NCBI GenBank assembly: GCA_964638425.1 | Contig: CAZWYM010000001.1 | Span: 74,441-138,440 of the forward strand | DNA length: 64,000 nucleotides | Reading direction: 5' to 3' | Source of the DNA: an uncultured Candidatus Saccharibacteria bacterium | GTDB lineage: Bacteria; Patescibacteriota; Minisyncoccia; Phycocordibacterales; UBA918 | Shown here: positions 1,612 to 25,174 of the stretch, piece after piece | Layout: each line of letters begins with the position of its first letter | Position numbering within the stretch: the first letter of the stretch is position 1 | Made by a program: the position numbers and the translations under genes | The notes under the pieces: generated by a model | The model's database searches: none | Told to the model about the DNA's origin: nothing | What the model saw: the letters and a program-made list of their open reading frames with translations, nothing else

Positions 1612-1639
1612 TAGCTAACTATATCACTGATTCCAATCT

Positions 1640-3613: not shown

Positions 3614-3658
3614 GTCCGTATACGATTATCTCAACTGGGGTTGAGGCTTCAGTGTTTC

Positions 3659-4321: not shown

Positions 4322-4333
4322 AGTTCGATACTG

Positions 4334-4552: not shown

Positions 4553-4572
4553 ACAGAAAGTATACCAAATCC

Positions 4573-5151
4573 TTAACGAGCTTCTCCTTCAAAATCAGGT
4601 TCAACAATTCCCCACCGCATACTCACTGGGTCAAGCTTTAAATATGCACTTTTGCCGACGGATGGTTGCGTCGTCATCGGTTCGCCATCTTCACGGACAG
4701 CATAATTAACGACTATCACATGTATATGACGAGGATTAGGACTCTGTGTAATATTCTGTGGCGCTACACGGTCCCCGAGCAGGTACCCATCCGAACCTGT
4801 ATATCCTTCCTCTGTATTGAGAGCAGCAACAGCATAAAACATGGTGCCGCTTCCCCCTGTCTCCTGTGTAAGCAAAAAAACGACATCCTCACGACCATCG
4901 CCATTTAAGTCGATAACTAAATCATTCCCAAAATACCGAGTCACTGTTTTTGAAGCTGAACCTGGGGCTATCTCCGTTTCTGCAAAGCCGTTGGTGAGGC
5001 GTACTTGTTCACCTTCTATTTCATATGCAATATTTTTATAATCAGACGGAAGGGCTACTGGTGCTTTAGGAGTGCTGTACTTCTGTACGATAAAAAAACT
5101 CATCGCTAGAATTACGACAATCCCTGAAATGAGATATCTTCTTTTTTCCAT
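4573..5151 (-). CDS. hypothetical membrane-anchored protein (FG-GAP-like DLNGDGREDVV motif)
   Basis: The track ORF extends to 5247. The internal Met (MEKRRYLISG...) at 5149-5151 is preceded by the same 20-nt leader found upstream of the DUF1059 gene, so this shorter start is preferred. Confidence 0.45.
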   Translation of the reverse strand: MEKRRYLISGIVVILAMSFFIVQKYSTPKAPVALPSDYKNIAYEIEGEQVRLTNGFAETEIAPGSASKTVTRYFGNDLVIDLNGDGREDVVFLLTQETGGSGTMFYAVAALNTEEGYTGSDGYLLGDRVAPQNITQSPNPRHIHVIVVNYAVREDGEPMTTQPSVGKSAYLKLDPVSMRWGIVEPDFEGEAR

Positions 5152-5265
5152 ACAGAAAGTATACCAAATGTGTAATTTTCCTTCTAATTTAGGGTCATTT
5201 CCATTGAAATAATTTGAACGAAACACGCAACAAACTTTTTCCTTCAATGTGTTGTTTTATACAGT

Positions 5266-5466
5266 ATGGAAAAAGTAACACTGAGATTATTTTGGACGTG
5301 TATGATTGCCTGTGCGAGTTGCGCAGTTATAGGGATATGGTTTGAAGAACGAGTCCCTGAAGCATTTTTTAAAGCTATGGCAACGCTCTTTATCATTGGC
5401 CTCGCAAACTTTCTCGTTTGGGCGCCTATGATGGTGTACCGGTTTCTGAATAAACAGCCACACTAG
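5266..5466 (+). CDS. small two-TM membrane protein (hypothetical)
   Basis: 66-aa ORF with two hydrophobic helices, in an otherwise gene-free gap. Confidence 0.3.
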   Translation: MEKVTLRLFWTCMIACASCAVIGIWFEERVPEAFFKAMATLFIIGLANFLVWAPMMVYRFLNKQPH

Positions 5467-5503
5467 AAGAGATGGTGCATGGTACTTTTTAGTTTTAGGG
5501 ATA

Positions 5504-5911
5504 CTACTTCTCGGACTTACTACGGGGTAACGAATCACCCGTTCGTAAAATCTTTTCCATTGTCTTCCCTTTTGCGAGTTCATCTATGAGCTTGTCCAGA
5601 TAGCGAACTTCACGCATAAGGGGCTCTGTAACTTCTTCCACACGGACTCCGCAAACTACACCGGTTATTAACGTTCGCAGTGGGTTCATTCGTGGCGCCT
5701 CGTCAAAAAATGTTTCGAAGGTGACCTGCTTCTTTATTTGTTTCTCGAGCGCTTTTTGGGTATACCCCGTTAGCCAACATATGATTTTATCAACTTCTTT
5801 TTTCGTACGTCCTTTCTTCTCCCCCTTAGCAACATACAAAGGATACACACTCCCAAATATCATCGCATATACTCTTTTTATTGATGCTGGGTTTTCTGTT
5901 TTCATATTCAC
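5504..5911 (-). CDS. DUF2200 family protein
   Basis: Motif [32 protein letters not shown] is characteristic of DUF2200. Confidence 0.6.
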
Positions 5912-5942
5912 AATGCTATCACGACCTACTCTTCCCCTAAAA

Positions 5943-5996
5943 ACTACCGAATGGTTGCGCCGGGGATTTCCTTGAGGTACTGCTCCGTAGCGAGCA
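5943..5996. repeat. degenerate direct repeat, a copy of the 3' end of the gene at 7194..7748; left boundary of the fic cassette
   Basis: About 53 bp, ~5 mismatches and 1 indel versus 7193..7245. Confidence 0.7.
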
Positions 5997-6015
5997 ACTA
6001 CGCCACTCGTGTGTA

Positions 6016-7086
6016 CTAACTTAACAATTTGAGCAATGCCTGATTGGCAAAGAAGTGGTTTCGACCGACTTTCATTGAACGTAGGACCCCCGCTTCAGAA
6101 AGTTGCAGCAAGTACTTGCTCGCTGTGGTGTAGTGAATGTTAATTTCATTTGCCAGCTTGGTAGGAGTAATGACTGGGTACGAGAAAAGTGCTTCTAGCA
6201 AGTCAGCTGAATAAATCTTAGTGTGGTTGGTCTTAATGTTTTGTCGAAGCTCATGATGAAGTCCTACAATAGCATTGAGTGTCTCTTTGGTTTCTTTGGC
6301 TTGCAAATAAAAACCTTGAAGCATGAAGGCAATATATTCTTCCCAAGCACCTCCTGAAGTGACCGCTCGAAGTAATCGATAATATTCAGCACGATTCTTA
6401 TTAATGTAGCCACTGATAAAAATAATAGGTAGGTCGAGTACTCCATCCTTAACAAGTTCAAGGACCATCAAAATACGACCAGTACGTCCGTTACCATCGA
6501 GGAAGGGGTGGATTGATTCAAACTGTTGATGTGCTATTGCTGCCCGAATGAGTGGATCAATATCCGTATTTTCATTTACAAAATGCTCCCAATTACCAAT
6601 GAGTTCAGGGATTCTGTTTTGCAAAGGCGGTGTGTAGAGTATCTCACCAGTAGTTGAGTTGGCGATGTGATTTTGTTCACGACGATACATACCACCACCG
6701 GTGAGCATAAGTTGTTCGTGAACGCCCAAAATTGTGCGGTTACTGATACCAATGTCAGGCATGTTCTTCATCCCCCAAAATAGGGCCTGTTGATACTTAA
6801 GTACTTCTTTGTTTGGCTTACTCTGCTCATCTGCAGGTAAAAGCTGATTTTCGAGAACATTCGCAACTGTGGTATTGATATTCTCAATGCCTGAAGACTC
6901 GACTGATTCTTTAATGAGTAGCGGTGAAGTAAGTAAAAGTGGGTTCGGAATCTGTCCAGAAGCACCCTTGAGTTCTGCTAATTCCACTCGGGCCTTAAGC
7001 AACAATTCTGAAAAAACCTTATAATCTATGGTTTTTTCAGGTGGAAGCATGGCCAAATCAATTGGATATATTGGATTAAATGACAT
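6016..7086 (-). CDS. fic: Fic/DOC family protein (putative AMPylator) with C-terminal wHTH
   Basis: Canonical Fic motif [12 protein letters not shown]. Confidence 0.85.
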
Positions 7087-7192
7087 ATTGCTACCAATAT
7101 ATCAGTTTTTTTGATTTTTTACCATATATTGAGGTGGGTATGTTACTTTCACCTATGTAAGGCTATCAAGACCAACTCTTTGCACTTTAAAG

Positions 7193-7245
7193 ACTACCAA
7201 ATGGTTGCTCCGTGGATTCCCTTGAGGTACTGCTCGTAGCGAGCA
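7193..7245. repeat. direct repeat, the authentic 3' end of the 7194..7748 CDS; right boundary of the fic cassette
   Basis: Matches 5943..5996. Confidence 0.7.
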
Positions 7246-7748
7246 TCGGCAAGGCGGAGTTTGTAGTGTATGCGGGTGATGACGATTGCGTATGTCTTGC
7301 CGAACGTACCGCGGATGGTGGAGCGTATCTCAAACGAAGCTGTTTTACCTGCGGGTATTTTTGCATAGTGCACTGTACCGACGGTAACTTGCAGTACCCC
7401 TTCTCCACGAACGCGCACATCAGCAGTAGCAATCCTCCCTTCTGCAGTTCCCTCAATCTGGTACATGAAGCCCGCTACCTTCTTCCCCGAAGCAATGGAG
7501 ATAGGAATGAATACATCTCCGTCCTTTGCGGTAATCTCTATCTCAAGGTACGACGTTCCAACGAGGGTGTCGACTGCATCTTTCTGCTTCACCCGTTCTG
7601 CGCGTCCTTGATTCTTTTTTACCTTTACACCAATGAAAGGATCCTTCCCTTCCAGTTTATTCGCCTCTATTAATTCACTCTGGAGTACTTTGAGCTTCGC
7701 GTTTAAATCCTTCACTAGCTTTTTAGTATCACTTGGTACTTTTTTCAT
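7194..7748 (-). CDS. hypothetical protein
   Basis: 184-aa ORF; no recognised motif. Confidence 0.5.
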   Translation of the reverse strand: MKKVPSDTKKLVKDLNAKLKVLQSELIEANKLEGKDPFIGVKVKKNQGRAERVKQKDAVDTLVGTSYLEIEITAKDGDVFIPISIASGKKVAGFMYQIEGTAEGRIATADVRVRGEGVLQVTVGTVHYAKIPAGKTASFEIRSTIRGTFGKTYAIVITRIHYKLRLADARYEQYLKGIHGATIW

Positions 7749-7993
7749 ACTGTAATTATAGAATATGAAAAGTCCCCTTCATGCATGCTGTGGGAATAAG
7801 GTTAGGTTGGTGAGAGTCGAGCTACGGTATATTTGAACCAGAGTGTCATCTTCTACATACCGAGTTCCATACCACGACAACGCTCCACGGTATGGCGGTC
7901 GTAGAGGTCGATGTAGTACTGCTTGTCTTTGAGGTGGGTTATCACCTCAATATTTTATTCCTCTTTTAAGATATTTCCAGTTGCTGAAAATAT

Positions 7994-8563
7994 CTACTGA
8001 TACACGCACAAGCTATTGAATATAGGGTACAACACCTCAAATAACTGACCAAGGATGAGTCCCATAAACGATGCGTACAGAACTAGAATTATATACGAGT
8101 CCTTACCTTCATTTGCATTGCGAAATGATTGTAGAACTCCTACTTTATCAAACTCACGCTTTGCATTAGGATCACCAAAAAGTTCTCGATACAAACGCAC
8201 TCCGAAGGTAACACCAATGAAAATAATACTGATACCAATCAAACTTTGTAGAGAATCATCTGCAACTCTCTTGCTGATATCTAGCGCGCAATACGACTGA
8301 GCAATAAAGAGAATAAGGGATAATCCTGCTCCAATCACCATCAACGATCTGAACACTGCCAGAGCTGCTAGGGACCACGTAAACAAGGAAATGAACGCGA
8401 GTCCGATCAGAGAAAAGGTAAGAAAGATTGTGCTCACCTGCTTTTCCCAGTGAGCGAATGCAAATGAAGTTAGTATTACTGTGACTACGTATAGGACAAA
8501 CAGTACAGTAAATTTTCTGTCAGTCTTCATTCTGTGCAGTATGTATTTTATCTTCTTCAGCAT
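7994..8563 (-). CDS. 5-TM membrane protein; paralogue of 21695..22243
   Basis: Start codon is 2 nt after the KAP NTPase stop. Shares IAQSYCALD / MAQTYCDLQ and C-terminal SLCVYQ / GLCMY with the other paralogue. Confidence 0.5.
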   Translation of the reverse strand: MLKKIKYILHRMKTDRKFTVLFVLYVVTVILTSFAFAHWEKQVSTIFLTFSLIGLAFISLFTWSLAALAVFRSLMVIGAGLSLILFIAQSYCALDISKRVADDSLQSLIGISIIFIGVTFGVRLYRELFGDPNAKREFDKVGVLQSFRNANEGKDSYIILVLYASFMGLILGQLFEVLYPIFNSLCVYQ

Positions 8564-8565
8564 AA

Positions 8566-11500
8566 TTAAGATTCATTCTTCTCCGTCACATTATGAGATT
8601 CTACCTTTTCCCAATAACTTTTTTCAGTCGCACTAATCCTTCCATCAGGTTTTAGTTGCAATAGAAAATCAACAACTGATTTCTTCCCCCCGTTACTCCA
8701 CGAATCTAGGGCAGAAGCAACGTCTTCGTAGTCCTTCTGATATTGACTGAAGGACGGCTTCAACGTTAGTAAATTACTAAATGCCAAATCCAAAACTTCC
8801 TGAGAGTGACCATCTCTGATCATACAAAACAAGCTGAAAATATAATCCTTTTGCAGAGTCTCTTGTAACTCAGAGAAAAATCCAGTAACTACTTTAAGCG
8901 CAGAGGAATTTACTGTAGCTAAAACTTTACCTGGTTGTCTCAAAAATTCTAATGTTGACTTAACTATTTCTCTCTTCTTTTCTATGCTCAAAAAGTCTGC
9001 TTTTTCAAAGAAAAAATGCCCTACTTCGGATGTTTCAAGACTATCCTGGTTAAGTAATTCGATTACTTGCTTTGACACTAACTCCTTTATTGCAACATCA
9101 TTGTTTTTATTAATCTTGTCGGCAACAAAGTCATACATCTTCCTTCTACCCGCAATCCCAATAGTCGGAGCCTTGTTCAGTATTTTTTCAACTATTTCTG
9201 CCCTTGCATAATCTTTAGGCTTCAATGTAGCAATAAATTCTATCGCCTGAAGAGGATCTTGGGCAATTAGTACATCAAGTATTTGAAGTCTAGTTTCATC
9301 AGAAGAAAAATCATATATCACCTTAGTAAAATCTGGTTGTGACAAAACTCTTGGTTGAATGTTTGGTAAAAATTCGGTCACTAATGTTTGAGCATAAGTG
9401 ATTTTCCAAAACGTGAAGAACTCACGGACCGCAACCGCATTAGCATTTTGTAAAAACTGTACAAATAGTTGTTGCGCTTCGGTTTTCTGTGGATCAACAA
9501 GACTACTTCTTAGATAAATAAGTATAAGAGATAGGGTCTTACGCTTTTCCCATAAAGGAATCGCGTTGAAGGTTTGAACTATGTTTTTTATAAAATCAAC
9601 CTTATCTGCGGGCAAAAGTAATTTCAAATCTACTCTGAAAGTAACCAGCAAACCGAGAGCTTCCTTAAAGAATTGTTCTTTTTCTTCAGTAAAACCTGAA
9701 ACTGCTTGATTGTGTGCAATAGTAATTTCAGTAAGTTTTTTGAAGAGTTGAGGAAAGACTTTCTTCTCTATTACCATATCACTCAGGTCAGTCAACAAAG
9801 CTTTCTTTGTACCAAAGTTTTCTAGTGAAGCTGTTTCAACAATCCGTTCAATACTTTTTTTCGTAAGAAACTTGCTTTTATCATCGATTCCAACAAAAAG
9901 ATTCAAGATGTCGTCTCTTACGGAGTAATGTTCCTCAATAGCTTGTGCAATATTCAAAACATGTTCATTTGTTAGTAACTGCTTTTGCTTTACTAGGTTT
10001 TGCAAAATGCTCTTAACAATTGCTATTTCGTTAAAATTTTTAAACTCTTCGGTTGCAGAAAGTGCCAGAACATAACGGTCAAGAATATTCTTTCTAATAC
10101 GAGAATCAAGATTGGGATCCGCAACTACAAAATCAAAAATCACATCAGTTGGCAACTTCTGAAAAGAAGGCCAAACTTTACCATCAAGTAAGCCCGCGAC
10201 AGTATTTATATAATCTCTACTAGTCAGATTTAGCTCACCAAGAACAGTTAACTGAGTTTTAAAAATGGTTGTAACTACATCAATTCCGTGATTTTTATAC
10301 TTGTTGAGGATTGAAATAATGAACTCAAGCAAAGTTGCCTTGTCTGTTTCTGCCTCTATATGAGTTTTTGCCGTAGTTTCATTTCCTTCTATGAGAGAAA
10401 GCCTGATGGACTCATCATCTGTAAGAAGGTCGGAGATAACAGGTTTCTTTAGGTATATAAATGGTTCAGCATCCTCAACAGTGATTCGACTGGTCTCAAG
10501 CATGAAATTCTCAAACTCCTCACGAAAAGGCGGTTCTTCTGCAACCACTACTTTCCTATACGTACCAAGTATCTCTTCAGGTGCATACCAAGATTTTTTC
10601 AAGTTTTGAAATGCCTCGGGGTACTTATGCATTAGCACAAGTACTTTTGCCATATATGCAATATTATTAGAAACAATATCCTTAACCTCAGTATTGAAGG
10701 CAACAAGAACTGCAGAAATTAAATTGTTAATAAATTGTTTTATCTCTCGAGGATTGTTAGAAAATGCAGACTCTATAACCAAGTACACATCATCATTTTC
10801 TAAATAATTTTTAATGTCTCCTGTTTGTTTGATCTGTTCTTTCACGAAAGTACGAATGTCGGTATCAATATATTCCGGAGTCCAAACAACAACATTGAAT
10901 ATCTTTCTTAAAAACTCGTCGGCTAACTCAGCGCTAGGAGCTGCCTTTTTAATTGCTTCAAAATCACATGGGACGAGAAAAACAACATTCTTACCTTTTG
11001 CGTCCACGTCTTTAATTTCAAGAAACGTTTTTAGAGTCGACAGGACTTCCGTAGCAACTTTAGAGTCAACACGGTCAAGATTGTCTATAACAACCACAAC
11101 TCTATTGGTCTTAATTTTTGATAACTTTAAAATCCGTACAAAAGATTTCTCAAATTGTTCGGGAGAACTTAACTGTGATTTTGAGGAAGTTATCGGAGAA
11201 ACCATAATAATCTTTTTGAAGTCCTCCCCAAGTACTTTCTCTATAATTAAAGCAATTGAAAGTGCCAACGAAAAACTTGTTCCGGCCCAAAGTTTCCATT
11301 GTGTGGCAAGATCAGGGAAGACTTGCCACGTAAACAGACCAATTATTATTAGGAACGGCAGCGACAAAATTGCCACCTTCTTCAAATAACCCCAGGAGAT
11401 GGATACCTTTTCGCCTACAGTTTCGCTCAGAGAAAAATAAAGTTCCTTCTCAAGCTTATCAATTTCATTTTTATTTACTTGCAAATCCTTTGCTATCTGC

Positions 11501-11781
11501 AGGAGCAACTGTCTTCTTAAAGAATCTTTTTCGTATTTCCAAGCATCAAATTCAACTATTGTTCCTCCCTCAATACCCTCATCTTTGAGTAACTTAACGA
11601 TTGTACTTTTTCCTGTACCCCATCGACCAAAGAGACCGATGGTATGAACACACGTGTCGCTTTCTAAAATAGATTTAAGTGCCGGTGCAACGCTCTTGTG
11701 GTAGAAATCAAAAAAGTTTTTAGACTCCTTACCAACAGGAGCATCCTTTAAAAAATTAAACTGTTTTGATTTGTTATCCAT
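8566..11781 (-). CDS. KAP family P-loop NTPase
   Basis: Walker A GRWGTGKST. Two TM helices inserted within the NTPase domain (LPFLIIIGLFTWQVF.../SFSLALSIALII), which is the hallmark of KAP NTPases. Walker B/DdLDR-like VVVIDNLDR. Long helical C-terminal region. 15 nt downstream of hsdR. Confidence 0.8.
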   Translation of the reverse strand: MDNKSKQFNFLKDAPVGKESKNFFDFYHKSVAPALKSILESDTCVHTIGLFGRWGTGKSTIVKLLKDEGIEGGTIVEFDAWKYEKDSLRRQLLLQIAKDLQVNKNEIDKLEKELYFSLSETVGEKVSISWGYLKKVAILSLPFLIIIGLFTWQVFPDLATQWKLWAGTSFSLALSIALIIEKVLGEDFKKIIMVSPITSSKSQLSSPEQFEKSFVRILKLSKIKTNRVVVVIDNLDRVDSKVATEVLSTLKTFLEIKDVDAKGKNVVFLVPCDFEAIKKAAPSAELADEFLRKIFNVVVWTPEYIDTDIRTFVKEQIKQTGDIKNYLENDDVYLVIESAFSNNPREIKQFINNLISAVLVAFNTEVKDIVSNNIAYMAKVLVLMHKYPEAFQNLKKSWYAPEEILGTYRKVVVAEEPPFREEFENFMLETSRITVEDAEPFIYLKKPVISDLLTDDESIRLSLIEGNETTAKTHIEAETDKATLLEFIISILNKYKNHGIDVVTTIFKTQLTVLGELNLTSRDYINTVAGLLDGKVWPSFQKLPTDVIFDFVVADPNLDSRIRKNILDRYVLALSATEEFKNFNEIAIVKSILQNLVKQKQLLTNEHVLNIAQAIEEHYSVRDDILNLFVGIDDKSKFLTKKSIERIVETASLENFGTKKALLTDLSDMVIEKKVFPQLFKKLTEITIAHNQAVSGFTEEKEQFFKEALGLLVTFRVDLKLLLPADKVDFIKNIVQTFNAIPLWEKRKTLSLILIYLRSSLVDPQKTEAQQLFVQFLQNANAVAVREFFTFWKITYAQTLVTEFLPNIQPRVLSQPDFTKVIYDFSSDETRLQILDVLIAQDPLQAIEFIATLKPKDYARAEIVEKILNKAPTIGIAGRRKMYDFVADKINKNNDVAIKELVSKQVIELLNQDSLETSEVGHFFFEKADFLSIEKKREIVKSTLEFLRQPGKVLATVNSSALKVVTGFFSELQETLQKDYIFSLFCMIRDGHSQEVLDLAFSNLLTLKPSFSQYQKDYEDVASALDSWSNGGKKSVVDFLLQLKPDGRISATEKSYWEKVESHNVTEKNES

Positions 11782-11796
11782 AATTAAATTTCGAAC

Positions 11797-14700
11797 TCAG
11801 ATATTTACCGTATACACGCTAGTCTTATTATCAACATAACTGTCGTAAACATGCGAATAGACCTTCTGAGTTTTATCTTCACAGTCTTCTTCTGTATAGG
11901 TAGGCTCAGGCAAGTTGTCATACAAAAGAGCGCGGATAGTGACCTTAACATCAGCACGAGTCTCTTCCTTTTTCTTCCAGTCGAGCGCAAGTTTCTCCAT
12001 ACGAAGCTTTATTACCAACTCCTTCGCAACCACTTTCACTTGATTTACTTCGTCTGGATTGAGGTTCTCTTTTTTGAGCAAGTCAAAAATAGCCAGCTCT
12101 TCCTCAGATAGGTTCTCTGCAATTGCACGACTATCTTCCTCGCTTAGATCCTTAGCGAGCTCTACGAGCTGGTCAAAGAACGACTCAAGATCATGCGAAC
12201 CAGCGTTGTATTCATGCAACAGTCGATTGAGGCGATCAAGGAATGCCTTGCGTAGCTTATTCTTTCGAACCATCTCTTTTATCTTCTCTTCCAATTCAGC
12301 ACTTAATTCCTCAGCTTCAATATTCTTCGTGTCTGAGTCATCAAAAAACTTCTTGAGTGCTTCAAAGTCTATCTTGCTTAGGTCTTTTAGGTTTGGTTTA
12401 TCTTTAATGACGTACTCACCGGCACGGATAGAACGGTCGAGCAGATCCTCAAGATCCTTCTTAACCTGAGACACGTCAGTCTCCTCGTCGATAACTTCAC
12501 GGATACGGGAAGCAATAACCTTATACGCAGTCACCTCGTGGTAGAAGTCTTCTGCCTTTGGTTCTGGGAGAACAGCTTTGTAGTATTTGAGTGCATCACC
12601 TGAAAGTTCGAGGTAGCGTTGCTTAGTTTGTTCATCGACAAGGATGCGGTTGGTAAATACGTCGACGAGACGGATCTTTTCAATATCCTTTGCTTCGAGT
12701 AAATCATTGATATTGAGGTCGAGCAACTTGAGGAATTGTCGAGTCTGAGAAACACTTGCAAAGAGGATTTCTACTAGCTCATCCTTATCTTTAATAATCT
12801 CGTCATCACCATCATTCGAGACAGCATAAATAGCGAGTGCTTTCTGGAGGTTTCGGAACACACCAATGTAGTCAACGATAAGACCGTTAGTCTTTCCCGG
12901 ATACACACGGTTTGCACGAGCGATAGTCTGCATGAGCGTATGGTTCTTGAGTGGCTTATCAAGATAGAGCGTTGAAAGGTTTGGCACGTCAAAACCAGTC
13001 ATCCACATAGCACATACGAAGACAATCTTGAGGTTATCGGTAGGCTCTTTGAATTTAGTTTCCAAGTCCTCGTCAATCATACGAGCACGGATCGGACGCA
13101 TATCGATGTCAAACTCCTTCATGTCATCAATTTCGTTCTGGCTTTGACTGACCACTACCGCCATATCAATGTCCTCGTATTTAGATATCTGCTCACGAAT
13201 AGACTCCTTTTCGTGTTCGTCTTTTGCTTTTGAGACAGCAATATTAAGCTTTGCAATGTACCGTTGCATTTGTTCTTTTACCTTCACGTACATGCGAATA
13301 GCTGTCTTCTTATCAATAGACACGACCATCGCTTTACCGTTGTATCCCCGTGAGGTAAAGTGCGTCACAATATCTTCCGCAACCTTATTGAGACGATCTT
13401 CACGAGAGATGAGGTGGTAGAAAGTTGAAAACTCCTGCTCAAGTTTATCCTCCTCATCAGAGGTAAGGTCGTAGTAATCCATTACCTTCTCAATATCCTT
13501 CTGGATATCAGTATTAGTATTCTGAAGTTTTGGAACACGGTTCTCATAGAAGAGCGGTACTGTCGCACCGTCCTCTACAGACTGTGCAAAATTGTATGTT
13601 GAAACATAGTCTCCAAAGGTTGAGCGGGTCTTTTCTTCACCATCCATAATTGGCGTACCAGTAAAGCCAATGAATGAAGCGTTCGGAAGTGCAATACGAA
13701 GGTTTTTTGCAAAAGTATCGTATTGGGTACGATGCGCTTCGTCAGCCATTACAATAATGTCATTTCGTAGATTGAGTTCAATGGGTTCGTTGAACTTCTG
13801 AATCAAAGTGAAGATATGGCGATGATCCTCAGCAAGTAGTTCTCGGAGATTTTGAACAGAATCTGCATGCACTTCTTTATCTTTCTCAGCTCCACAGTCA
13901 ACAAAGTTCTTGTATATCTGTTTATCAAGCTCACGACGGTCAGTAATCAGCACAAAAGTGAAGTTACCATGCATCTTTCTGAATACCTTCTGCGACAAGA
14001 AGAGCATTGAGTATGATTTTCCTGATCCTTGTGTGTGCCAGAACACCCCAAGACGACCTCCATTTTCTTCACGATGTTCAATACGCTGAAAAGCTTTATT
14101 GACCCCGAGGAACTGGAAGTATCGAGCAACAATTTTGGTGAGTTCGCCACGAGAGCCATCAAATAATGTGAAGTTCTCAACAATATCTAAAAGTCGTGAC
14201 GGCTCACACGTACCACGAAGTACAATGTCGAGACTTACGCCACCCTCTTCACTCTCGTCATTAATCTTCTTCCATTCATTAAAGTGCTCATAGGCAGAAG
14301 TAAGGGTACCCACCTTACTCTCAATACCATTTGAAATAATGATAAATGCGTTACACCAAAAAAGCTGAGGAATGGTGTCCTTATAGTCACGAATATTTTC
14401 TTGGTAGGCATTGCGGAGATTCTTGTGCGAAGCTTTCAATTCAATGAGCACTAACGGCAACCCATTTACAAAACCTATAAGATCAGGGCGACGCTTGTGG
14501 AGTTCGCCAGTGATCCACATTTGAGATACGAGAAGGTAGTCGTTTTTTGAGACATCATTAAAATCAACAACTTTGATATTGATGGTCTCTATCGCTCCAC
14601 GATCGTCACGGACCTCAACTTTGACACCATCTTTTATGAGTTTATAGATATCAGCATTCGCATTTACCAAACTCATTGATGAACGGTCACGAGTAAGCTC

Positions 14701-14922
14701 ATCAATAGCTTGAATAATGGCTTCTATTGGAGCATCAGGGTTAAGTCTCTCGAGAGAGGGCTTTAGGTACTTCGCCAAAATAACCTGCCCTTGATTATCA
14801 CGACCTAGGAGTGCGTCACCCTCATCAGAGTATCCATTAATAAAATTTTTAACACCCCAAAGTTCGCCAAAGATTTTGACAGCTGTTTGCTCTATGAGGT
14901 TGTCTTCTGAAAATTCGTTCAT
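11797..14922 (-). CDS. hsdR: type I restriction enzyme R subunit (HsdR)
   Basis: SF2 helicase motifs WHTQGSGKS and DEAHR; size 1041 aa; overlaps hsdS by 4 nt. Confidence 0.9.
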   Translation of the reverse strand: MNEFSEDNLIEQTAVKIFGELWGVKNFINGYSDEGDALLGRDNQGQVILAKYLKPSLERLNPDAPIEAIIQAIDELTRDRSSMSLVNANADIYKLIKDGVKVEVRDDRGAIETINIKVVDFNDVSKNDYLLVSQMWITGELHKRRPDLIGFVNGLPLVLIELKASHKNLRNAYQENIRDYKDTIPQLFWCNAFIIISNGIESKVGTLTSAYEHFNEWKKINDESEEGGVSLDIVLRGTCEPSRLLDIVENFTLFDGSRGELTKIVARYFQFLGVNKAFQRIEHREENGGRLGVFWHTQGSGKSYSMLFLSQKVFRKMHGNFTFVLITDRRELDKQIYKNFVDCGAEKDKEVHADSVQNLRELLAEDHRHIFTLIQKFNEPIELNLRNDIIVMADEAHRTQYDTFAKNLRIALPNASFIGFTGTPIMDGEEKTRSTFGDYVSTYNFAQSVEDGATVPLFYENRVPKLQNTNTDIQKDIEKVMDYYDLTSDEEDKLEQEFSTFYHLISREDRLNKVAEDIVTHFTSRGYNGKAMVVSIDKKTAIRMYVKVKEQMQRYIAKLNIAVSKAKDEHEKESIREQISKYEDIDMAVVVSQSQNEIDDMKEFDIDMRPIRARMIDEDLETKFKEPTDNLKIVFVCAMWMTGFDVPNLSTLYLDKPLKNHTLMQTIARANRVYPGKTNGLIVDYIGVFRNLQKALAIYAVSNDGDDEIIKDKDELVEILFASVSQTRQFLKLLDLNINDLLEAKDIEKIRLVDVFTNRILVDEQTKQRYLELSGDALKYYKAVLPEPKAEDFYHEVTAYKVIASRIREVIDEETDVSQVKKDLEDLLDRSIRAGEYVIKDKPNLKDLSKIDFEALKKFFDDSDTKNIEAEELSAELEEKIKEMVRKNKLRKAFLDRLNRLLHEYNAGSHDLESFFDQLVELAKDLSEEDSRAIAENLSEEELAIFDLLKKENLNPDEVNQVKVVAKELVIKLRMEKLALDWKKKEETRADVKVTIRALLYDNLPEPTYTEEDCEDKTQKVYSHVYDSYVDNKTSVYTVNI

Positions 14923-16100
14923 GATTTTATTTCTAATTTACCGGTGACCAACTGTGGAAGAATCAAGTCACGTGACTTGATCAGTATTTCGTTCTGTTTC
15001 TCAAGTTTATACTTTAAAACAATACATTCTCGCACCTCTCTACCAAATTTATCTGTAACTTCAACTGGCGGAACATTCAATTTCTTTGTCATAAATTCAG
15101 GCCAGTGTCCTTTGTAGTCGTTGAATGAGATTAAGTTTTTTGTTGCAAAATGCAACCAAAATACATTCCTATCATCTAATGGGAGAAAAGGTAAAACATT
15201 TTGTATTGCAGAAAATGCAAACATTATTAAATTTTGATAACAAGTATGATTCGCAAATACAATTATTGGATCGTCTGTCGAAGCTACAACACTCGGCTCA
15301 TCATTATGATAGCCAATTATCCCTGACCTACCTTGATCTAAAACTGGCACTTTACCTGTAGGTTTAACAGTTTTATTTTCGTATCTCCTGCCAGCTGAGA
15401 CTCTTTTAATCACATCTTCTACTCTCTTTACTTCCCAGCCATCAGGAAGACCATCATTCCCAAATCTTATTTTTTCAGACCCAGGAAAACGAAAATTTAC
15501 AAACCATTCAGTATAAATTTTTTGAGCTAGTGTCTCAAGAATGTAGATGCGACGTTTGTTGTTTTCAATTAAATCATCAAAAAGGGACAAAGTTGAAGCA
15601 ATTGCTTTTTGAGTCTTCAATGGAAGATAATCAACATTGAGATTTTCTAGTTCACTCCCTCTGATTCCAGCTGCAGCTACCTGCATCACCAGTGATTGGG
15701 TTTTAGCTTTTCCTCTAGGAGATGAAAAGTAATAGTAGAAGAAATCAGGGTTTGCAATATCTTTTTTTAATCGCACTCTTATAAGGTGCGACTCGAAGGT
15801 TGTCTGACGTGTTGTCCCTTTAAAAATTGAACATTTACCAGCGCCTTCTGCCACTAATGACTGTCTTGCAAAAAGTAGATCGCCATCCATAAGTAGACTG
15901 TTCGCTTGCTCCTTTAACGTTAACGGGGCAAGCTCCATCCCAATAGAATCGTATATCTTGTCATACTTAAAAATCTCACCCATATTCACCATAGGAAAAC
16001 CTGAGCCTCTTACTCTCTTCGGCTTACTCACGCCATTACGAGAGGGGATTTCGTAAAGATCACCGAATCGTATTTCTTTTGTTTCTTGATTGATCTGCAT
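14919..16100 (-). CDS. hsdS: type I RM specificity subunit (HsdS), two target-recognition domains
   Basis: Position between hsdM and hsdR; two-TRD architecture with conserved central and C-terminal helices. Confidence 0.8.
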   Translation of the reverse strand: MQINQETKEIRFGDLYEIPSRNGVSKPKRVRGSGFPMVNMGEIFKYDKIYDSIGMELAPLTLKEQANSLLMDGDLLFARQSLVAEGAGKCSIFKGTTRQTTFESHLIRVRLKKDIANPDFFYYYFSSPRGKAKTQSLVMQVAAAGIRGSELENLNVDYLPLKTQKAIASTLSLFDDLIENNKRRIYILETLAQKIYTEWFVNFRFPGSEKIRFGNDGLPDGWEVKRVEDVIKRVSAGRRYENKTVKPTGKVPVLDQGRSGIIGYHNDEPSVVASTDDPIIVFANHTCYQNLIMFAFSAIQNVLPFLPLDDRNVFWLHFATKNLISFNDYKGHWPEFMTKKLNVPPVEVTDKFGREVRECIVLKYKLEKQNEILIKSRDLILPQLVTGKLEIKS

Positions 16101-16104
16101 ATTA

Positions 16105-17640
16105 CTATTCTAATCCCAAGAGATTTCGAAAATTATTCAAAATACTCTTTTCAAGAGAACGTGCCTCAACAGTAAGTTTTTCAAACTCGGTGTAAAGCTC
16201 TCTTGCAGACGTTTCAAAATCCTCATCTGAAATATCCGATTCGACAGTTCCTACATATCGACCTGGATTTAGAGAGTAACCAGTATCGGCTACTTCTTGG
16301 ATTGTAACGACCTTACAAAACCCCTTTACGTCTTCATATTTAGCTAAAGTTTGCTCGCCACGATACCTTCGTACAACGTCAGTAATCTGCTGTATTTGTT
16401 CATCAGTCCATTCACGATGTGAACGATCGACTTGGGTGAAGGTATTTCGTGCATCAATGAAAAGAATTTTGTCTTTACGCTCAAGATACCTCTTACCTTT
16501 GTCGAGAAACCAGAGAGTTACAGGAAGAGTAACGTTATAAAACATGTTTGGACCAACAGAGACCATCACATCAACAACATTGTCATCAACAAGCTTCTTA
16601 CGAATTTCTTTTTCACTATTTCCAGCATCACTGGCAGAGTTTGCCATAACAAAACCTGCACGACCTCCATCTTTGAGAGCGTTCAGGAATATTTGTATCC
16701 AGAGATAGTTACCGTTATCTGTACGTGGGAGACCGTATGAAAATCGGGGATCATCTTTGATACGTTCTTTATCAATACCATCTACATTGAATGGTGGATT
16801 TGCCATTGCAAAATCAAACTTTCCGACAGAGCGGTGTAGATCTTCGTAGTAAGTGTTTCCCTGACGTATATCTCCAGAAAGACCATGAATAGCGAGGTTC
16901 ATCTTAGCAATACGAACTGTCTGATCAGTCTTTTCTTGCCCATAAATAGAAATCTCTCGTGAGGCTTTTTCTTTTTTTCCATTTTCAAGATGACGCTTAA
17001 TGAACTCAAGGGACTGCACAAACATACCTCCTGAACCACAAGCAGGATCGTATATCTTTCCTTGATAGGGTTCAAGAATTTCTACGATCAACTTTACAAT
17101 CGATGTCGGAGTAAAGAACTCTCCACCACCCGAACCGTCTGACAGCGCGAACTTGCCGAGAAAGTATTCGTAAATAAGACCGAATGCATCGCCTTCAATT
17201 GTGTCGGGGATATGATTTAGATTTTTGAGAAGCGTAACAATTGCAGAATTGTCGAGCAGGTTGTAATTTTTCGGAAGAATGCCTGCGAGGTCTTTGTTTG
17301 ATGTTTCAATTTCCTTCATTGCATCATTAACTGCCTTTCCCATATCCGTTCCTTCTGGAAGTGCAATGAGATACGAAAAACGAGCGTGCTCAGGAACGAA
17401 AAGCACAGCTCGTGATTGATAGTCCTCAGGAGTGATAGGTCTCTGACGTTTAGAAGTAGACGTCTTTGTCTCAGCTTCAATTTCTTTCTGTGCAACAGTG
17501 AATTTTACGTCAGCGAACTTGAGAAAAATAAGACCTAGAACTGGCTCAGCAAACTCGTTGAGACGCAAAGAAGAGTTGGCTCGAAGATGATCTGCCGCCT
17601 CCCATAGTTTACTCTCAAGTTGTTTGATGTCTGATGCCAT
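16105..17640 (-). CDS. hsdM: type I RM N6-adenine DNA methyltransferase (HsdM)
   Basis: HsdM N-terminal domain, SAM motif, and catalytic NPPF (ANPPFNVDG). Confidence 0.9.
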   Translation of the reverse strand: MASDIKQLESKLWEAADHLRANSSLRLNEFAEPVLGLIFLKFADVKFTVAQKEIEAETKTSTSKRQRPITPEDYQSRAVLFVPEHARFSYLIALPEGTDMGKAVNDAMKEIETSNKDLAGILPKNYNLLDNSAIVTLLKNLNHIPDTIEGDAFGLIYEYFLGKFALSDGSGGGEFFTPTSIVKLIVEILEPYQGKIYDPACGSGGMFVQSLEFIKRHLENGKKEKASREISIYGQEKTDQTVRIAKMNLAIHGLSGDIRQGNTYYEDLHRSVGKFDFAMANPPFNVDGIDKERIKDDPRFSYGLPRTDNGNYLWIQIFLNALKDGGRAGFVMANSASDAGNSEKEIRKKLVDDNVVDVMVSVGPNMFYNVTLPVTLWFLDKGKRYLERKDKILFIDARNTFTQVDRSHREWTDEQIQQITDVVRRYRGEQTLAKYEDVKGFCKVVTIQEVADTGYSLNPGRYVGTVESDISDEDFETSARELYTEFEKLTVEARSLEKSILNNFRNLLGLE

Positions 17641-17645
17641 AAATG

Positions 17646-17849
17646 TTAAATACTCTTATCCAAAAATTTAATGATGTCTTCCTTGCGGTAACGTCGGTCT
17701 TTGCGAGTACCGAAGCGTAGCGCCTTAAGAATTCCTTTGTTGTCCCACTTGCGAAGCGTGTTCGGATGGCAATTTAGAACATCACATGCCTGCTGTAATG
17801 TCAGGATATCCGGTAACTCCAAAAGCTTCTTTTCGTGTTTCGTTGGCAT
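17646..17849 (-). CDS. excisionase/MerR-like HTH DNA-binding protein upstream of hsdM
   Basis: LTLQQACDVLNCHPNTLRKWDNKGILKALRFGTRKDRRY is an HTH_17-like sequence. Confidence 0.55.
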   Translation of the reverse strand: MPTKHEKKLLELPDILTLQQACDVLNCHPNTLRKWDNKGILKALRFGTRKDRRYRKEDIIKFLDKSI

Positions 17850-17902
17850 AATGCTAACTTAACACAAGTTTACATCACATTTTAAGAAAGATAAACTCGC
17901 AT

Positions 17903-18502
17903 TTAAGCTGTATTTTCAACGATTGCCTTTGCGAGATCGTTAAATTCAAAGGGTTTTATAGCGTGCTTTTCTAGACGAGCCAGAGAGATACTGTTGCCAT
18001 TCTTCGATAGCTCCTTAAGGTGGTCTCTTGAAAGAACATAGAAACACCACTGACTAAGGTCGACGATATCGAGAGTGACATGGTCTTGGTGCTTAAACAG
18101 TGCAAGAACATATACATCAGATTTGTAGTCAGCAACCCTGCTAAGCTCTGATTGCTTCTTAACAGCGTCTGAGTAATACAGTTCTGTTGCCTTAAGCCCA
18201 GACCAGAGAATCTTTGTAAATTGATTTTGATCCCAGTCTTGAATATATGAGCAACACTTCACCTCAATCTTTGTATTCTGATACAAAACATCGTAGTCTC
18301 CCCAAGGACTACGAACATCGATCTCTTTATTCTGTTTGAGTGCGTTCTCGACTAGAAATTCTGCGAGTGCACCTCGAAGTACATTTGAGTTAAGGCTGGA
18401 AAAGCCGTACTGCCAGAACTCTAATACGTTGAAAGATTTTTGTCCTGAGTTTTTAAATGTCTCAGAGCCCGAAAGTTTTTTCACTGGAAGTTTTTTATAC
18501 AT
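17903..18502 (-). CDS. hypothetical protein with a putative PD-(D/E)xK nuclease-like motif
   Basis: GDYDV...EVK spacing resembles a restriction-endonuclease-fold core. Lies upstream of the RM operon. Confidence 0.35.
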   Translation of the reverse strand: MYKKLPVKKLSGSETFKNSGQKSFNVLEFWQYGFSSLNSNVLRGALAEFLVENALKQNKEIDVRSPWGDYDVLYQNTKIEVKCCSYIQDWDQNQFTKILWSGLKATELYYSDAVKKQSELSRVADYKSDVYVLALFKHQDHVTLDIVDLSQWCFYVLSRDHLKELSKNGNSISLARLEKHAIKPFEFNDLAKAIVENTA

Positions 18503-18544: not shown

Positions 18545-18967
18545 CTACATTACCTTTTCAAGTATCGTGAAGAGGCCTTGGGAGGTGAACTTTGCCCAGC
18601 TGTTTGGCTTGAGGTCTTTGGTCAGAATTATCGTTCCTTTTGCAGTAATGCGTTCTCCGTCTCTGAAGTCTGCCATGCTTCCTGCACCTGCTCCGAAATT
18701 AACCGCGTAGTATTCACCCTCATCGGTATGAATGCCAAACGCGCAGTCCGCTGTGACGGTACCCCCTGCAACAGGTGGTAGACATACGTACGTTCCCGAA
18801 AGTGTTACCGTCTCTGCCTTCTGTGTTACGTTCTCACCTTTTGTCTCTACACGTTCCTCGCTAGGTGTACCTCCGTTTGGAGTCGAAGTACTCCCCTGCC
18901 TCAGACTGCTATACCCCACAAATAAAACAACGAGTACCACCGCACCGATGAGTATGTTTCGATTCAT
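18545..18967 (-). CDS. hypothetical secreted protein
   Basis: N-terminal signal/TM segment; Gly/Thr-rich. Confidence 0.4.
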   Translation of the reverse strand: MNRNILIGAVVLVVLFVGYSSLRQGSTSTPNGGTPSEERVETKGENVTQKAETVTLSGTYVCLPPVAGGTVTADCAFGIHTDEGEYYAVNFGAGAGSMADFRDGERITAKGTIILTKDLKPNSWAKFTSQGLFTILEKVM

Positions 18968-18984
18968 ATAAAAAGTATATCAGA

Positions 18985-19022
18985 AACCCCAACGCGAAGC
19001 GCTAGCTTCGCGTTGGGGTTTC
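18985..19022. terminator. perfect palindromic hairpin (aaaccccaacgcgaagc gctagc ttcgcgttggggttt)
   Basis: Seen directly; between two minus-strand genes. Confidence 0.45.
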
Positions 19023-19041
19023 TCCACGTTGGTCAAACTTA

Positions 19042-19082
19042 AAAAATAATCCCGAAGGTCGCCATGGCGACCTTCGGGATTA
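19042..19082 (-). terminator. rho-independent terminator of the DUF1653 gene
   Basis: Hairpin aatcccgaaggtcgcc atg gcgaccttcgggatt followed by a T-run on the minus strand. Confidence 0.6.
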
Positions 19083-19092
19083 TGGGCGTATC

Positions 19093-21694: not shown

Positions 21695-22243
21695 TTAGTA
21701 CATACAAAGACCCGAAATAATTGGCGTTAGTACTCTATAAATACAAATAAGGTAGAACAAAACAAAGAGAATATATGCAATTATGGTCAATCTGCTTTCC
21801 CATGATGAGCCACCTTTCTCAAACCGCTTCCTATGCTCTTTGTATGCCTCCTGAAATTTTGTAATGAAATCGTAGGAGATAAAGACGAGTCCTGTACCCC
21901 ACAAGAACGTGAGGGCTTGGAGTCCTTCAGGTGTTTGGCTTTGGAGATCACAATATGTCTGTGCCATAAAAATGAGCACACCAAATCCAACGCTTGCATG
22001 TAGTAAGGCTTTGTATACTGCATAGCCAGATACAAGCATGATGACAGTGAGGACAAATCCAATGGAAGAAACAGCGACAATAGAAAGACCAGAAAGAAGT
22101 TGGTGATTGAAGTAGTTGTTGTCAGCAAATATCAGAGCAGTAAAAAGAACCGCAAAGATGAGCGGTACTAATTTCTCCTTATTAAACCCAAGTTTCATAA
22201 GTCCAACTATACGCCCACAATACGAGTCTGCAACTATACCCAT
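21695..22243 (-). CDS. 5-TM membrane protein; paralogue of 7994..8563; last gene of the LexA-TIR-caspase operon
   Basis: Overlaps the upstream gene by 10 nt; shares conserved blocks with 7994..8563. Confidence 0.5.
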   Translation of the reverse strand: MGIVADSYCGRIVGLMKLGFNKEKLVPLIFAVLFTALIFADNNYFNHQLLSGLSIVAVSSIGFVLTVIMLVSGYAVYKALLHASVGFGVLIFMAQTYCDLQSQTPEGLQALTFLWGTGLVFISYDFITKFQEAYKEHRKRFEKGGSSWESRLTIIAYILFVLFYLICIYRVLTPIISGLCMY

Positions 22244-25114: not shown

Positions 25115-25174
25115 GGTATAAATAGTATAACAAATGCTATACAATCCAGCAAACAGTGCTAAAATTAGGATACT

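Follow-up and report, generated by a model that had tools for sequence, protein, structure and literature searches.

A KAP NTPase gene in an exchangeable position at the 3' end of a type I restriction-modification operon, a candidate antiphage gene

Introduction

The demonstration that KAP NTPases are antiphage proteins is very recent. EF_KAP and three KAP proteins from gut metagenomes are described as single-gene defenses in mobile islands beside serine recombinases (PLoS Biol 2026, PMC13552941). In the same report, KAP NTPases carrying fused C-terminal regions of unknown nature protected against phages and required the Walker B motif for doing so, and the one KAP protein tested for abortive infection reportedly does not act in that mode (PMC13552941). 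Tmn, a single-gene defense of mobile hotspots, is an NTPase with two transmembrane (TM) helices inside the P-loop domain and with solenoid arms. It senses a phage protein, its solenoid binding T2 RIIB, and its ATPase drives the export of Mg2+; the assembled protein is a decameric pore, and it synergizes with other defenses (PMC13001434).

Here we describe a KAP NTPase gene that lies directly behind a type I restriction-modification (RM) operon in DNA from an uncultured Candidatus Saccharibacteria bacterium. The stretch analyzed is 64,000 nucleotides long and is called the window; all coordinates refer to it. We compare the locus with its relatives (loci with L numbers) and weigh several explanations of the position of the KAP gene.

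Results

All genes of the locus are on the minus strand. The first, HTH_17 (17646-17849), encodes a small MerR-like DNA-binding protein (Pfam HTH_17, 3.1e-11; PADLOC mad1, 9.8e-9) that is likely the controller of the RM operon; such a gene also opens the RM gene set in L084, L088, and L095, and L099 carries it as a fusion with HsdM. It is followed by hsdM (16105-17640), for the methyltransferase subunit (N6_Mtase, 5.2e-97; HsdM_N, 6.4e-22; PADLOC MTase_I, 1.2e-202), hsdS (14919-16100), for the specificity subunit (Methylase_S, 3.5e-16; PADLOC Specificity_I over residues 5-392), and hsdR (11797-14922), for a full-length restriction subunit with HSDR_N, SWI2_SNF2, T1R_D3-like, and T1RH-like_C domains (PADLOC REase_I, 1.5e-183). 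HsdM, HsdS, and HsdR each have their characteristic domains, which identifies the system as type I RM, and hsdS is the divergent portion of the operon compared to relatives. The contiguous HTH-hsdM-hsdS-hsdR order given in an earlier note on this DNA was confirmed for every gene, as were the positions that it gave for the two genes downstream. These are a KAP NTPase gene (8566-11781; 1071 aa; PF07693 at 96 bits against a cutoff of 20), which begins 15 nt after hsdR, and, 2 nt farther on, a gene for a 189-aa protein with five hydrophobic segments, here called TM189 (7994-8563). The remaining junctions are equally close, with gaps of 5 nt (HTH_17/hsdM) and 4 nt (hsdM/hsdS) and a 4-nt overlap of hsdS and hsdR. 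Tight gene spacing is normal in such compact genomes, L092 being an example, and this counts against reading cotranscription from the spacing.

A single tightly packed, codirectional transcription unit is plausible, and the RM genes and the KAP gene would, judged by their spacing, be cotranscribed. We found neither a promoter-like nor a terminator-like site in the gap between hsdR and KAP (11782-11796), and RNA structure at this junction was not above chance (fold z = +1.14). A promoter-like leader (17850-17880, minus strand) immediately precedes the HTH_17 start codon, and its stretch GTGTAAACT..TGTTAAGTTAGC is kept in the window, L088, and L095; the leader presumably acts as the promoter. 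Homology of the window to L088 and L095 starts at about 17877, the left edge of the block common to them, and two strong terminators (19083-18982) lie farther upstream of the unit. Beyond TM189 there are two hairpins, at 7995-7969 and 7950-7929 (RNA fold of 7900-8010, z = -3.42; 0 of 200 shuffles as good). The first of these (7969-7995, minus strand) has a 12-bp stem beginning at the TM189 stop codon and no U-tract, and as a putative terminator it may be where the unit ends or is attenuated.

The unit is thus likely to be about 9.9 kb long (about 17880 to 7994). The earlier note had proposed one unit of ~10.5 kb; the close packing and the lack of a terminator at the hsdR/KAP junction agree with one unit, but the size does not hold, since a 199-aa open reading frame (ORF) at 17903-18502 had been wrongly included. 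This ORF lies outside the block conserved in syntenic relatives and gave no HTH or other family match in profile scans, and we rejected it both as an HTH gene and as the start of the unit.

The KAP protein matches PF07693 over residues 36-354 (profile positions 9-286 of 293), and its start codon is backed by the family alignment (MxxxxFxFLKD). More than 250 homologues are conserved over the full length, and those members of the clade that carry taxonomic labels are mostly Patescibacteria. The Walker A motif GRWGTGKS (residues 52-59; 11605-11628, minus strand) and the Walker B motif VVVIDNLDR (residues 229-237; 11071-11097, minus strand) follow the patterns GxWGxGKS and hhhhDNxDR, both invariant in 24 of 24 aligned members. 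Between the two motifs, a two-helix TM hairpin (residues 130-183; 11233-11394, minus strand; AF2 helices 130-154 and 158-183) is inserted in the P-loop domain, which bears out the earlier proposal of TM helices at this place, and hydrophobic segments occur at the equivalent position in every full-length KAP homologue. The AF2 model has a pLDDT of 83.6 overall and only 45-58, i.e., low confidence, in the hairpin. The C-terminal part is an all-alpha, HEAT/ARM-like solenoid of ~620 aa (residues ~440-1062; 8596-10464, minus strand) with a pLDDT mostly above 90, for which Foldseek returned karyopherins, CAND1, and the PP2A-A subunit. The solenoid diverges faster than the NTPase (mean pairwise identity of 30%, versus 50-53%) and is presumed to be a sensing or interaction surface. 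No enzymatic effector domain was found in the protein by Pfam scan or Foldseek.

In its profile score, Walker motifs, TM helices inside the NTPase, and alpha-superhelical accessory region, the protein belongs to the KAP family. The label "STAND-like" given to it earlier is imprecise: the Pfam scan gave no match to the STAND family (NACHT or NB-ARC core) and, besides KAP_NTPase, returned AAA_22, AAA_16, and AAA below threshold. The GC content of the KAP gene is 36.1%, compared to 44.4 ± 3.0% for the other ORFs of the window and 42% for hsdR.

RM genes are present within about 3 kb in 17 of the 21 distinct full-length KAP loci of the clade. A restriction enzyme is the immediate codirectional upstream neighbor of KAP in nine loci, at a distance of -4 to +24 nt. 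The neighbor is HsdR in the window, L004 (4-nt overlap, with the KAP ATG on the hsdR stop), and L011; type III Res in L084 (3 nt); a type IIG enzyme in L014 (5 nt) and L017 (-4 nt); and GmrSD_N-HNH in L006 and L007. Linkage to type I RM is seen in L004, L011, L015, and L098, the last with a fragment of hsdR and a YgjP-like gene upstream of KAP, and the KAP genes of L009 and L013 lie within a helicase-DUF4391-Mod-Res cluster. The linkage recurs with RM proteins that are just 37-42% identical, as in L004. At L002 and L083 the KAP gene lies apart from the RM genes and adjoins a recombinase, and at four KAP loci (L005, L019, L043, and L075) an RM neighbor is absent; these four favor an autonomous KAP protein. 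A position that recurs behind restriction subunits could equally mean coupling to restriction rather than autonomy. RM adjacency was found for 9 of 15 members of the clade versus 1 of 60 distant KAPs, a comparison that is biased, since the RM queries were drawn from the clade's own loci. The linkage of KAP and RM is conserved across RM types at the level of the family, not of the locus. A terminator or promoter at the junction, combined with a linkage not conserved in related genomes, would have spoken against the earlier note; the junction has no such signal, and the linkage recurs in related genomes.

One explanation of this recurrence is that the KAP protein guards the RM system in the manner of PrrC. 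Its solenoid would monitor the restriction complex or antirestriction factors (Ocr/ArdA-type mimics or Stp-like peptides), and disabled restriction would lead to a membrane-based shutdown. The close, codirectional placement 3' of a restriction subunit in nine independent loci, its recurrence with RM proteins as divergent as those of L004, and a KAP protein without an enzymatic effector of its own are all in line with a guard, for which PrrC and RloC, both encoded within type I hsd loci, are the precedent (PMC2610378 and established knowledge). Specific protein-protein contact is, however, disfavored by partners as unrelated as type I, IIG, III, and GmrSD-HNH enzymes, and the four loci lacking any RM neighbor, as well as the two with KAP beside a recombinase instead, also tell against a guard, which we consider rather doubtful.

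The block common to the window, L088, and L095 comprises HTH-hsdM-hsdR and TM189 at ~80-90% identity; HsdR is 79-90% identical to the syntenic relatives, with 90% for the L095 protein. In L088 and L095 the KAP gene alone is replaced, gene-precisely, by a cassette encoding a ~250-aa and a 1013-aa protein, the latter matching the C-terminal region of Dsr1 (4.9e-17). The interval from the end of hsdR to TM189 is a gene-precise swap slot at the 3' end of the RM operon, and the locus is a mobile-type defense island. The islands of L002, L083, L084, L096, and L099 have large serine recombinases at their edges; prophage genes adjoin L086, and L096 lies inside an IMG/VR provirus call.

These surroundings bear on the idea that the neighbors are coincidental and that KAP is a housekeeping membrane NTPase, for example an organizer of envelope complexes. 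Full-length conservation and concentration in one organism group would suit such a role, and eukaryotic KAP proteins act as scaffolds (Kidins220/ARMS). Nonetheless, close relatives have no KAP gene in the orthologous slot, the GC content of the gene is atypical, recombinases and prophage genes flank it, and RM adjacency in 17 of 21 loci involves unrelated RM types, so that we give this idea very little credence.

Close homologues of TM189 number 36, with identities of 48-100%, and the family comprises 159 representatives at E <= 1e-3. The TM189 start at 8563 is backed by the family alignment, the 178-aa version of the gene caller being too short; the AF2 model has a pLDDT of 69.8, and a fold match was not found. 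TM189, the X440 family described below, and the 1013-aa family matched no described family in the libraries searched. TM189 recurs in last position, after variable defense-like cassettes and after type I RM operons. The earlier note had treated KAP and the TM protein as a pair, which the distribution does not bear out: only 2 of the 21 KAP loci have TM189 (in L004 its place is taken by an unrelated two-TM ORF of 131 aa), and only 2 of 11 TM189 loci have KAP. Upstream of TM189 in the nine loci from which KAP is missing are the 1013-aa protein, a 745+198-aa pair, Mrr_cat with a 356-aa protein, or YgjP. KAP and TM189 do not coevolve, because the TM189 of the window is closest (81-86%) to copies without KAP. 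Most likely, TM189 is a cotraveling or shared downstream gene and not a partner specific to KAP.

Downstream of TM189 is a truncated stub of X440 (7853-7945, minus strand; 30 codons), detected by tblastn at 81% identity to the N terminus of the L100 protein (E = 5.6e-11). X440 proteins combine a Cys-rich Zn-ribbon with an HTH, and elsewhere the gene is intact after TM189 or KAP. The TM189-X440 spacer is kept in the window, L100, and L095. The order KAP-TM189-X440 is intact in L098 with divergent copies (60% identity for KAP and 52% for TM189), and X440 comes straight after KAP in L084 (gap of 0) and L008.

It follows that KAP, TM189, and originally X440 might be considered a dedicated module, with KAP as sensor and switch, TM189 as membrane effector, and the window copy decayed by truncation of X440. 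Besides the intact order in L098, the 2-nt gap between KAP and TM189, and the placement of X440 in L084 and L008, two further observations fit: no conserved sequence with a promoter accompanies TM189 on its upstream side, since each context puts unrelated genes there, and P0196 is a fusion of a TM189-like domain and a segment bearing an Rx4H (HEPN-like) motif. The distribution of TM189 and KAP, the other genes found in KAP's place, the substitute ORF of L004, and the affinity of the window TM189 to KAP-less copies all weigh against such a module, and we judge it unlikely. A related and rather tentative suggestion is that the hsdR-TM189 interval is a recombination-driven plug-in slot for unrelated large solenoid-bearing sensors (KAP, or the 1013-aa protein with its small partner), with TM189 and X440 as a shared back end that would execute or regulate the response. 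If true, this would add an architecture of variable sensor and shared membrane effector to the restriction systems of Patescibacteria-type bacteria.

Discussion

We think it somewhat probable that the KAP protein is an autonomous antiphage sensor/effector that occupies the swap slot of an RM operon. Its gene would be read through from the RM promoter, and the protein would be anchored in the membrane by its hairpin, with the solenoid on the cytoplasmic side. By analogy with the tested KAP NTPases and Tmn, the solenoid may recognize a phage-derived protein or state, and recognition may switch the NTPase; oligomer- or membrane-level changes, possibly involving ion or nucleotide flux, would then halt phage growth. 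KAP would in this way provide a second layer of immunity against phages that escape restriction. The earlier note had offered an accessory defense function or an abortive-infection module. A defense role is consistent with the experiments on other KAP NTPases in PMC13552941, but abortive infection finds no support: the one KAP tested for it there reportedly acts otherwise.

The repeated occurrence of one KAP clade directly behind four types of restriction enzyme, in many bacteria of the candidate-phyla-radiation type, suggests a standard route for adding a second defense layer. Candidate-phyla-radiation bacteria have tiny genomes and rely heavily on RM and little on CRISPR. The exchange of KAP for a Dsr1-like cassette indicates that RM operons themselves can be defense hotspots with exchangeable cargo, and the KAP clade, TM189, X440, and the 1013-aa protein are candidates for membrane-based immunity.

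The published antiphage KAPs share with the window protein a KAP NTPase domain, membrane helices, and a large C-terminal region without a known domain. That region is ~322 aa in EF_KAP, compared to the ~620-aa HEAT-like solenoid of the window protein, and the clade studied here differs in being concentrated in Patescibacteria-type genomes and systematically placed 3' of RM operons, a placement that the passages of PMC13552941 consulted do not describe. Tmn likewise has two TM helices within the P-loop domain plus an alpha-solenoid, although it is assigned to the YobI family and the window protein to KAP; a PADLOC scan of the latter gave no Tmn match, with the inclusion of a Tmn model in that library unconfirmed. 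The likeness to the tested KAPs and to Tmn is architectural, a close sequence relationship not being established.

QatA, the best PADLOC and NCBIfam match, has the same KAP-type NTPase core, but just this core aligns, and the NCBIfam score of 69 bits compares with an equivalog cutoff of 600 bits. No genes for QatB, QatC, or QatD (QueC-like, TatD) are present in the unit, and membership in QatABCD was rejected on the score and the absent partners. PifA, which is responsible for F plasmid exclusion of T7, is another KAP-family member with a defense role; its weak N-terminal match (PADLOC, 1.8e-11, residues 11-123) covers just ~110 residues, and it is reported to be without TM helices (PMC13001434).

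PrrC, RloC, and other restriction-linked ORFs of type I hsd loci resemble the window KAP in placement, as second-line defense genes within, and coexpressed with, a type I RM operon, in a slot whose content varies by strain. PrrC and RloC are ABC-type ATPase anticodon nucleases, whereas the window protein combines a KAP core with a membrane anchor and lacks a nuclease, and the RM linkage of its clade is not confined to type I but covers several types. We rejected the window KAP as a PrrC-type anticodon nuclease, since it has no such domains and its C terminus is a HEAT-like solenoid; the placement alone is alike. The hotspots of P2/P4-type phage satellites and prophages, finally, share with this locus the conserved flanks and the gene-precise exchange of unrelated defense cassettes among close relatives. 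What differs is the identity of the flanks, which for the window slot are the hsdR 3' end and TM189, the gene of a small membrane protein, and the slot therefore lies inside the RM transcription unit.

Organization of the operon

The six genes of the unit all lie on the minus strand: HTH_17 (67-aa ORF, 17646-17849; Pfam), hsdM (16105-17640; N6_Mtase, 5e-97), hsdS (14919-16100; Specificity_I over residues 5-392 in PADLOC), hsdR (11797-14922; REase_I, 1.5e-183 in PADLOC, with all four HsdR domains), the KAP NTPase gene (1071-aa ORF, 8566-11781; PF07693 at 96 bits against a cut-off of 20), and the gene for TM189, a five-helix membrane protein (189-aa ORF, 7994-8563). By Pfam and PADLOC the type I restriction-modification (RM) system is complete, and the places of the genes are as the earlier note had described them. 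The intergenic gaps, read from HTH_17 to TM189, are 5, 4, -4, 15, and 2 nt, confirming that KAP begins 15 nt past hsdR and the membrane protein 2 nt past KAP. A consensus scan of the hsdR/KAP gap, the check proposed earlier, found no promoter-like or terminator-like site, and the RNA of the junction folds no better than shuffled sequences (z = +1.14). Two stable hairpins lie 3' of TM189, at 7995-7969 and 7950-7929 (RNA folding, z = -3.42), and two strong tandem terminator-like hairpins with 19-bp and 17-bp stems lie upstream of the island (18982-19083, minus strand), after a DUF1653 gene. Co-transcription of the RM genes, KAP, and TM189 is plausible.

The earlier note had proposed, as likely, a single transcription unit of ~10.5 kb, from 7994 to 18502. 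The tight gaps and the clean hsdR/KAP junction make a single transcript plausible, but the end at 18502 takes in an extraneous 199-aa ORF (17903-18502, minus strand), which has no Pfam, NCBIfam, or PADLOC match and falls outside the block common to the syntenic relatives. Together with a 140-aa ORF that likewise has no match in these three collections (18545-18967, minus strand), it sits between the terminators and the RM operon; both are missing there in the syntenic relatives.

Exchange of the gene between hsdR and TM189

Homology of the window to two syntenic relatives, the loci L088 and L095 from other genomes or metagenomes, begins immediately ahead of the HTH_17 start, in conserved sequence that resembles a promoter, with about 84% nt identity over HTH-hsdM, 79% nt and 90% aa identity in hsdR, and about 81% nt identity in TM189. 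It breaks off within the final codons of hsdR and returns at the TM189 start codon. The slot between these two points holds only the KAP gene in the window, compared to a ~250-aa gene and a 1013-aa gene in L088 and L095. This alternative cassette (L088, 6211-9998; L095, 6190-9998; L096, 6232-9998; L100, 6456-9998) consists of a variable protein of 177-256 aa and a protein of 1000-1013 aa that is 83-89% identical between loci and is followed in all four by TM189, 2 nt on. The 1013-aa protein matches the Dsr1 C-terminal region (4.9e-17, PADLOC), has no Pfam domain, and shows no homology to KAP (BLASTP E = 0.57). Pfam and PADLOC searches of the genes of the alternative cassette and of neighboring genes were mostly empty, the exceptions being Dsr1-C, an IetA-like AAA protein, PDC-S11, and PDC-S50. 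The GC content of the KAP gene is 36.1%, against 42.3% for hsdR, 40.0% for TM189, and 44.4 +/- 3.0% for the other ORFs of the window. Given this composition and the gene-precise exchange of unrelated proteins, the slot behaves like a defense hotspot inside an RM operon.

Architecture of the KAP protein

KAP homologues are conserved end to end, with lengths of about 1065-1100 aa. Those that carry a label are almost all from Patescibacteria (Pacebacteria, Staskawiczbacteria, Gracilibacteria, Parcubacteria, and Saccharibacteria), with a few in MAGs labeled Bacteroidota, Gammaproteobacteria, and Stahlbacteria; a scan of IMG/VR returned no full-length relative. In the AF2 model, calculated from a 24-sequence alignment (pLDDT 83.6), the P-loop domain occupies residues 1 to ~440 and is interrupted between Walker A and Walker B by a two-helix hairpin (residues 130-154 and 158-183). 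Residues ~440-1062 form an all-helical solenoid, mostly at pLDDT >90, that resembles karyopherins, CAND1, and PP2A-A; its fold matches in the PDB are generic HEAT/ARM solenoids only. The family profile found no solved relative by sequence, and no enzymatic effector domain was found in the protein.

Neither Walker A (GxWGxGKS) nor Walker B (hhhhDNxDR) varies in any of the 24 sequences. Mean pairwise identity is 50-53% in the NTPase halves, 30-31% in the solenoid, and 21% in the hairpin. The invariant motifs and the difference between NTPase and solenoid fit a conserved motor joined to a faster-evolving interaction surface.

Association of KAP with RM genes

Neighboring genes were annotated for 21 distinct loci with full-length KAP relatives. 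RM genes of at least four unrelated types lie within about 3 kb of KAP in 17 of them, and the linkage to which the earlier note drew attention is thus kept in related genomes. The immediate co-directional upstream gene is a restriction enzyme in nine loci: HsdR in the window (15 nt), in L004 (where the KAP ATG overlaps the stop by 4 nt and the RM proteins are only 37-42% identical to those of the window), and in L011 (19 nt); type III Res in L084 (3 nt, in the order HTH_17-Mod-Res-KAP); a type IIG Eco57I-like enzyme in L014 (5 nt) and L017 (-4 nt); GmrSD_N-HNH in L006 (24 nt) and L007 (11 nt); and, counted with these, a YgjP-like gene plus an hsdR fragment in L098 (11 nt). Upstream of KAP are also found an EcoRI-methylase, GmrSD/HNH, and a helicase (L086) or hsdM and hsdS (L015); KAP lies inside a helicase-(DUF262)-DUF4391-KAP-Mod-Res cluster in L009 and L013, and methyltransferases or GmrSD-HNH occur within about 3 kb in L002, L008, L010, and L083. 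The annotated neighbors include no RM gene in the remaining four (L005, L019, L043, and L075). A crude tblastn comparison placed RM-like genes at <500 nt in 9/15 KAP-clade loci versus 1/60 distant KAP loci, a control that is biased because the RM queries were drawn from the clade's own loci.

Mere coincidence of KAP and RM genes seems very improbable beside the recurrence across unrelated RM types. A restriction-guard role, in keeping with the restriction enzymes directly upstream and less so with the RM-free loci, is an unlikely reading.

TM189 and X440

The TM189 family is strongly conserved (mean column identity 72%), with 36 close clusters and 159 representatives at E <= 1e-3 among 1.84 billion; a metagenome scan gave only 4 loci. 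The AF2 model, of modest quality (pLDDT 69.8), matches no known fold. In the 11 distinct contexts surveyed, TM189 is the last gene behind differing upstream genes: KAP in the window and L098; the small variable and 1000-1013-aa proteins in L088, L095, L096, and L100; proteins of 745 aa and 198 aa in L092; an island encoding an IetA-like AAA protein, Mrr_cat, and a protein of 356 aa in L090; and a YgjP-like gene in L099. Type I RM operons, of varied subfamilies and gene orders, make up 6 of these contexts. TM189 is present in only 2/21 KAP loci, and the window copy is closest (81-86%) to copies without KAP. TM189 is therefore an RM/defense-linked gene in its own right rather than a dedicated partner of KAP; after the surveys of both families a KAP-specific role for it was rejected, and the pairing of KAP with the membrane protein in the earlier note does not hold as a dedicated one.

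A core housekeeping marker of an insertion site is also unlikely, since TM189 is rare, both of its flanks vary, and it occurs in recombinase islands and a provirus call. Its role may be that of a pure "hotspot flank." Two larger proteins, P0196 (575 aa) and P0235 (430 aa), end in a TM189-like domain. The N-terminal region of P0196 has an RSAYLH (Rx4H) motif reminiscent of HEPN domains, which is only a hint, as there is no Pfam match.

The L099 operon (1147-9992) is a further case of defense genes interleaved in a type I RM operon: HsdM carries the HTH as a fusion, a Shedu-type SduA_C gene lies between hsdM and hsdS, a 444-aa gene lies between hsdS and hsdR, and the YgjP-like gene and TM189 close the 3' end.

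X440 is a Cys-rich Zn-ribbon protein, with an HTH-like C terminus in longer forms (family alignment) and no sequence match in the PDB. It directly follows KAP in L084 (gap 0) and also follows KAP in L008, KAP-TM190 in L098, and TM189 in L100, L095, L090, and L097; an intact copy in L010 is likewise behind TM189 or KAP. The window retains a 30-codon remnant (7853-7945, minus strand; 81% identical to L100, E = 5.6e-11). Since the TM189-X440 spacer is kept in the window, L100, and L095 and only this stub follows it, the local module of the window is partly decayed or rearranged. A dedicated KAP-TM189-X440 module, as the gene order of L098 might suggest, is distinctly unlikely beside the scarcity of TM189 among KAP loci.

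Mobility and neighboring genes

Large serine recombinases are nearby in L002, L083, L084, L096, and L099, and prophage structural genes in L086. A trio near the islands, consisting of a ParB_N-N6_N4 methyltransferase, a ~130-aa HTH protein, and a ~380-500-aa protein (L002, 15352-18250; L010, 5512-8372; L096, 541-4437 and 17401-20486; L099, 11080-12408), resembles a phage ParB-methylase with small and large terminase. From the recurrence of these elements we conclude that the KAP/TM189 loci are mobile islands. IMG/VR calls the L096 region a provirus, and L103 is identical to it.

Just downstream of the unit, on the minus strand, are a SoFic-type Fic protein gene (6016-7086; PADLOC SoFic, 4.8e-104) and a DUF2200 gene (5504-5911); L088 has a HATPase_c/DUF4325 gene at this position instead, so that the island contains a second slot whose content varies. 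A 184-aa ORF without a family match (7194-7748, minus strand) is conserved behind TM189 in L088 and L089, where the nt identity is about 69%. A caspase-like Peptidase_C14 gene (3.4e-22) and then two tightly packed ORFs without assignment (232 and 182 aa) occupy 21695-23857 and 24497-25144 on the minus strand. With a LexA-like S24 repressor nearby, these genes may make up a further module for conflict or stress.

Relation to known systems

We lean, with modest confidence, towards KAP as an autonomous membrane-anchored sensor/switch defense protein that fills an exchangeable slot and forms a second layer, expressed together with the RM operon. The observation of the earlier note thus stands, and its interpretation is supported in part. 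The KAP protein class and the logic of RM-linked second-line defense are already known. New relative to the literature searched, which yielded no account of KAP genes lying within RM operons, are the clade-level association of KAP across RM types, the gene-precise swap slot inside an RM operon, and three uncharacterized co-traveling families: TM189, X440, and the 1013-aa protein.

KAP NTPases with C-terminal regions lacking a known domain were recently shown to protect against phage in a manner dependent on Walker B; for one of those tested, abortive infection is reported not to be the mechanism (PMC13552941). The nearest profile matches of KAP, QatA and PifA, cover the NTPase core only and fall far under the family thresholds. 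Tmn, of the YobI family, which senses T2 RIIB and exports Mg2+ (PMC13001434; 10.1101/2022.08.21.504612), shares the gross design of two TM helices within the P-loop domain and solenoid arms. The classical second-line genes found within type I loci, PrrC and RloC (PMC2610378), differ from KAP in encoding anticodon nucleases.
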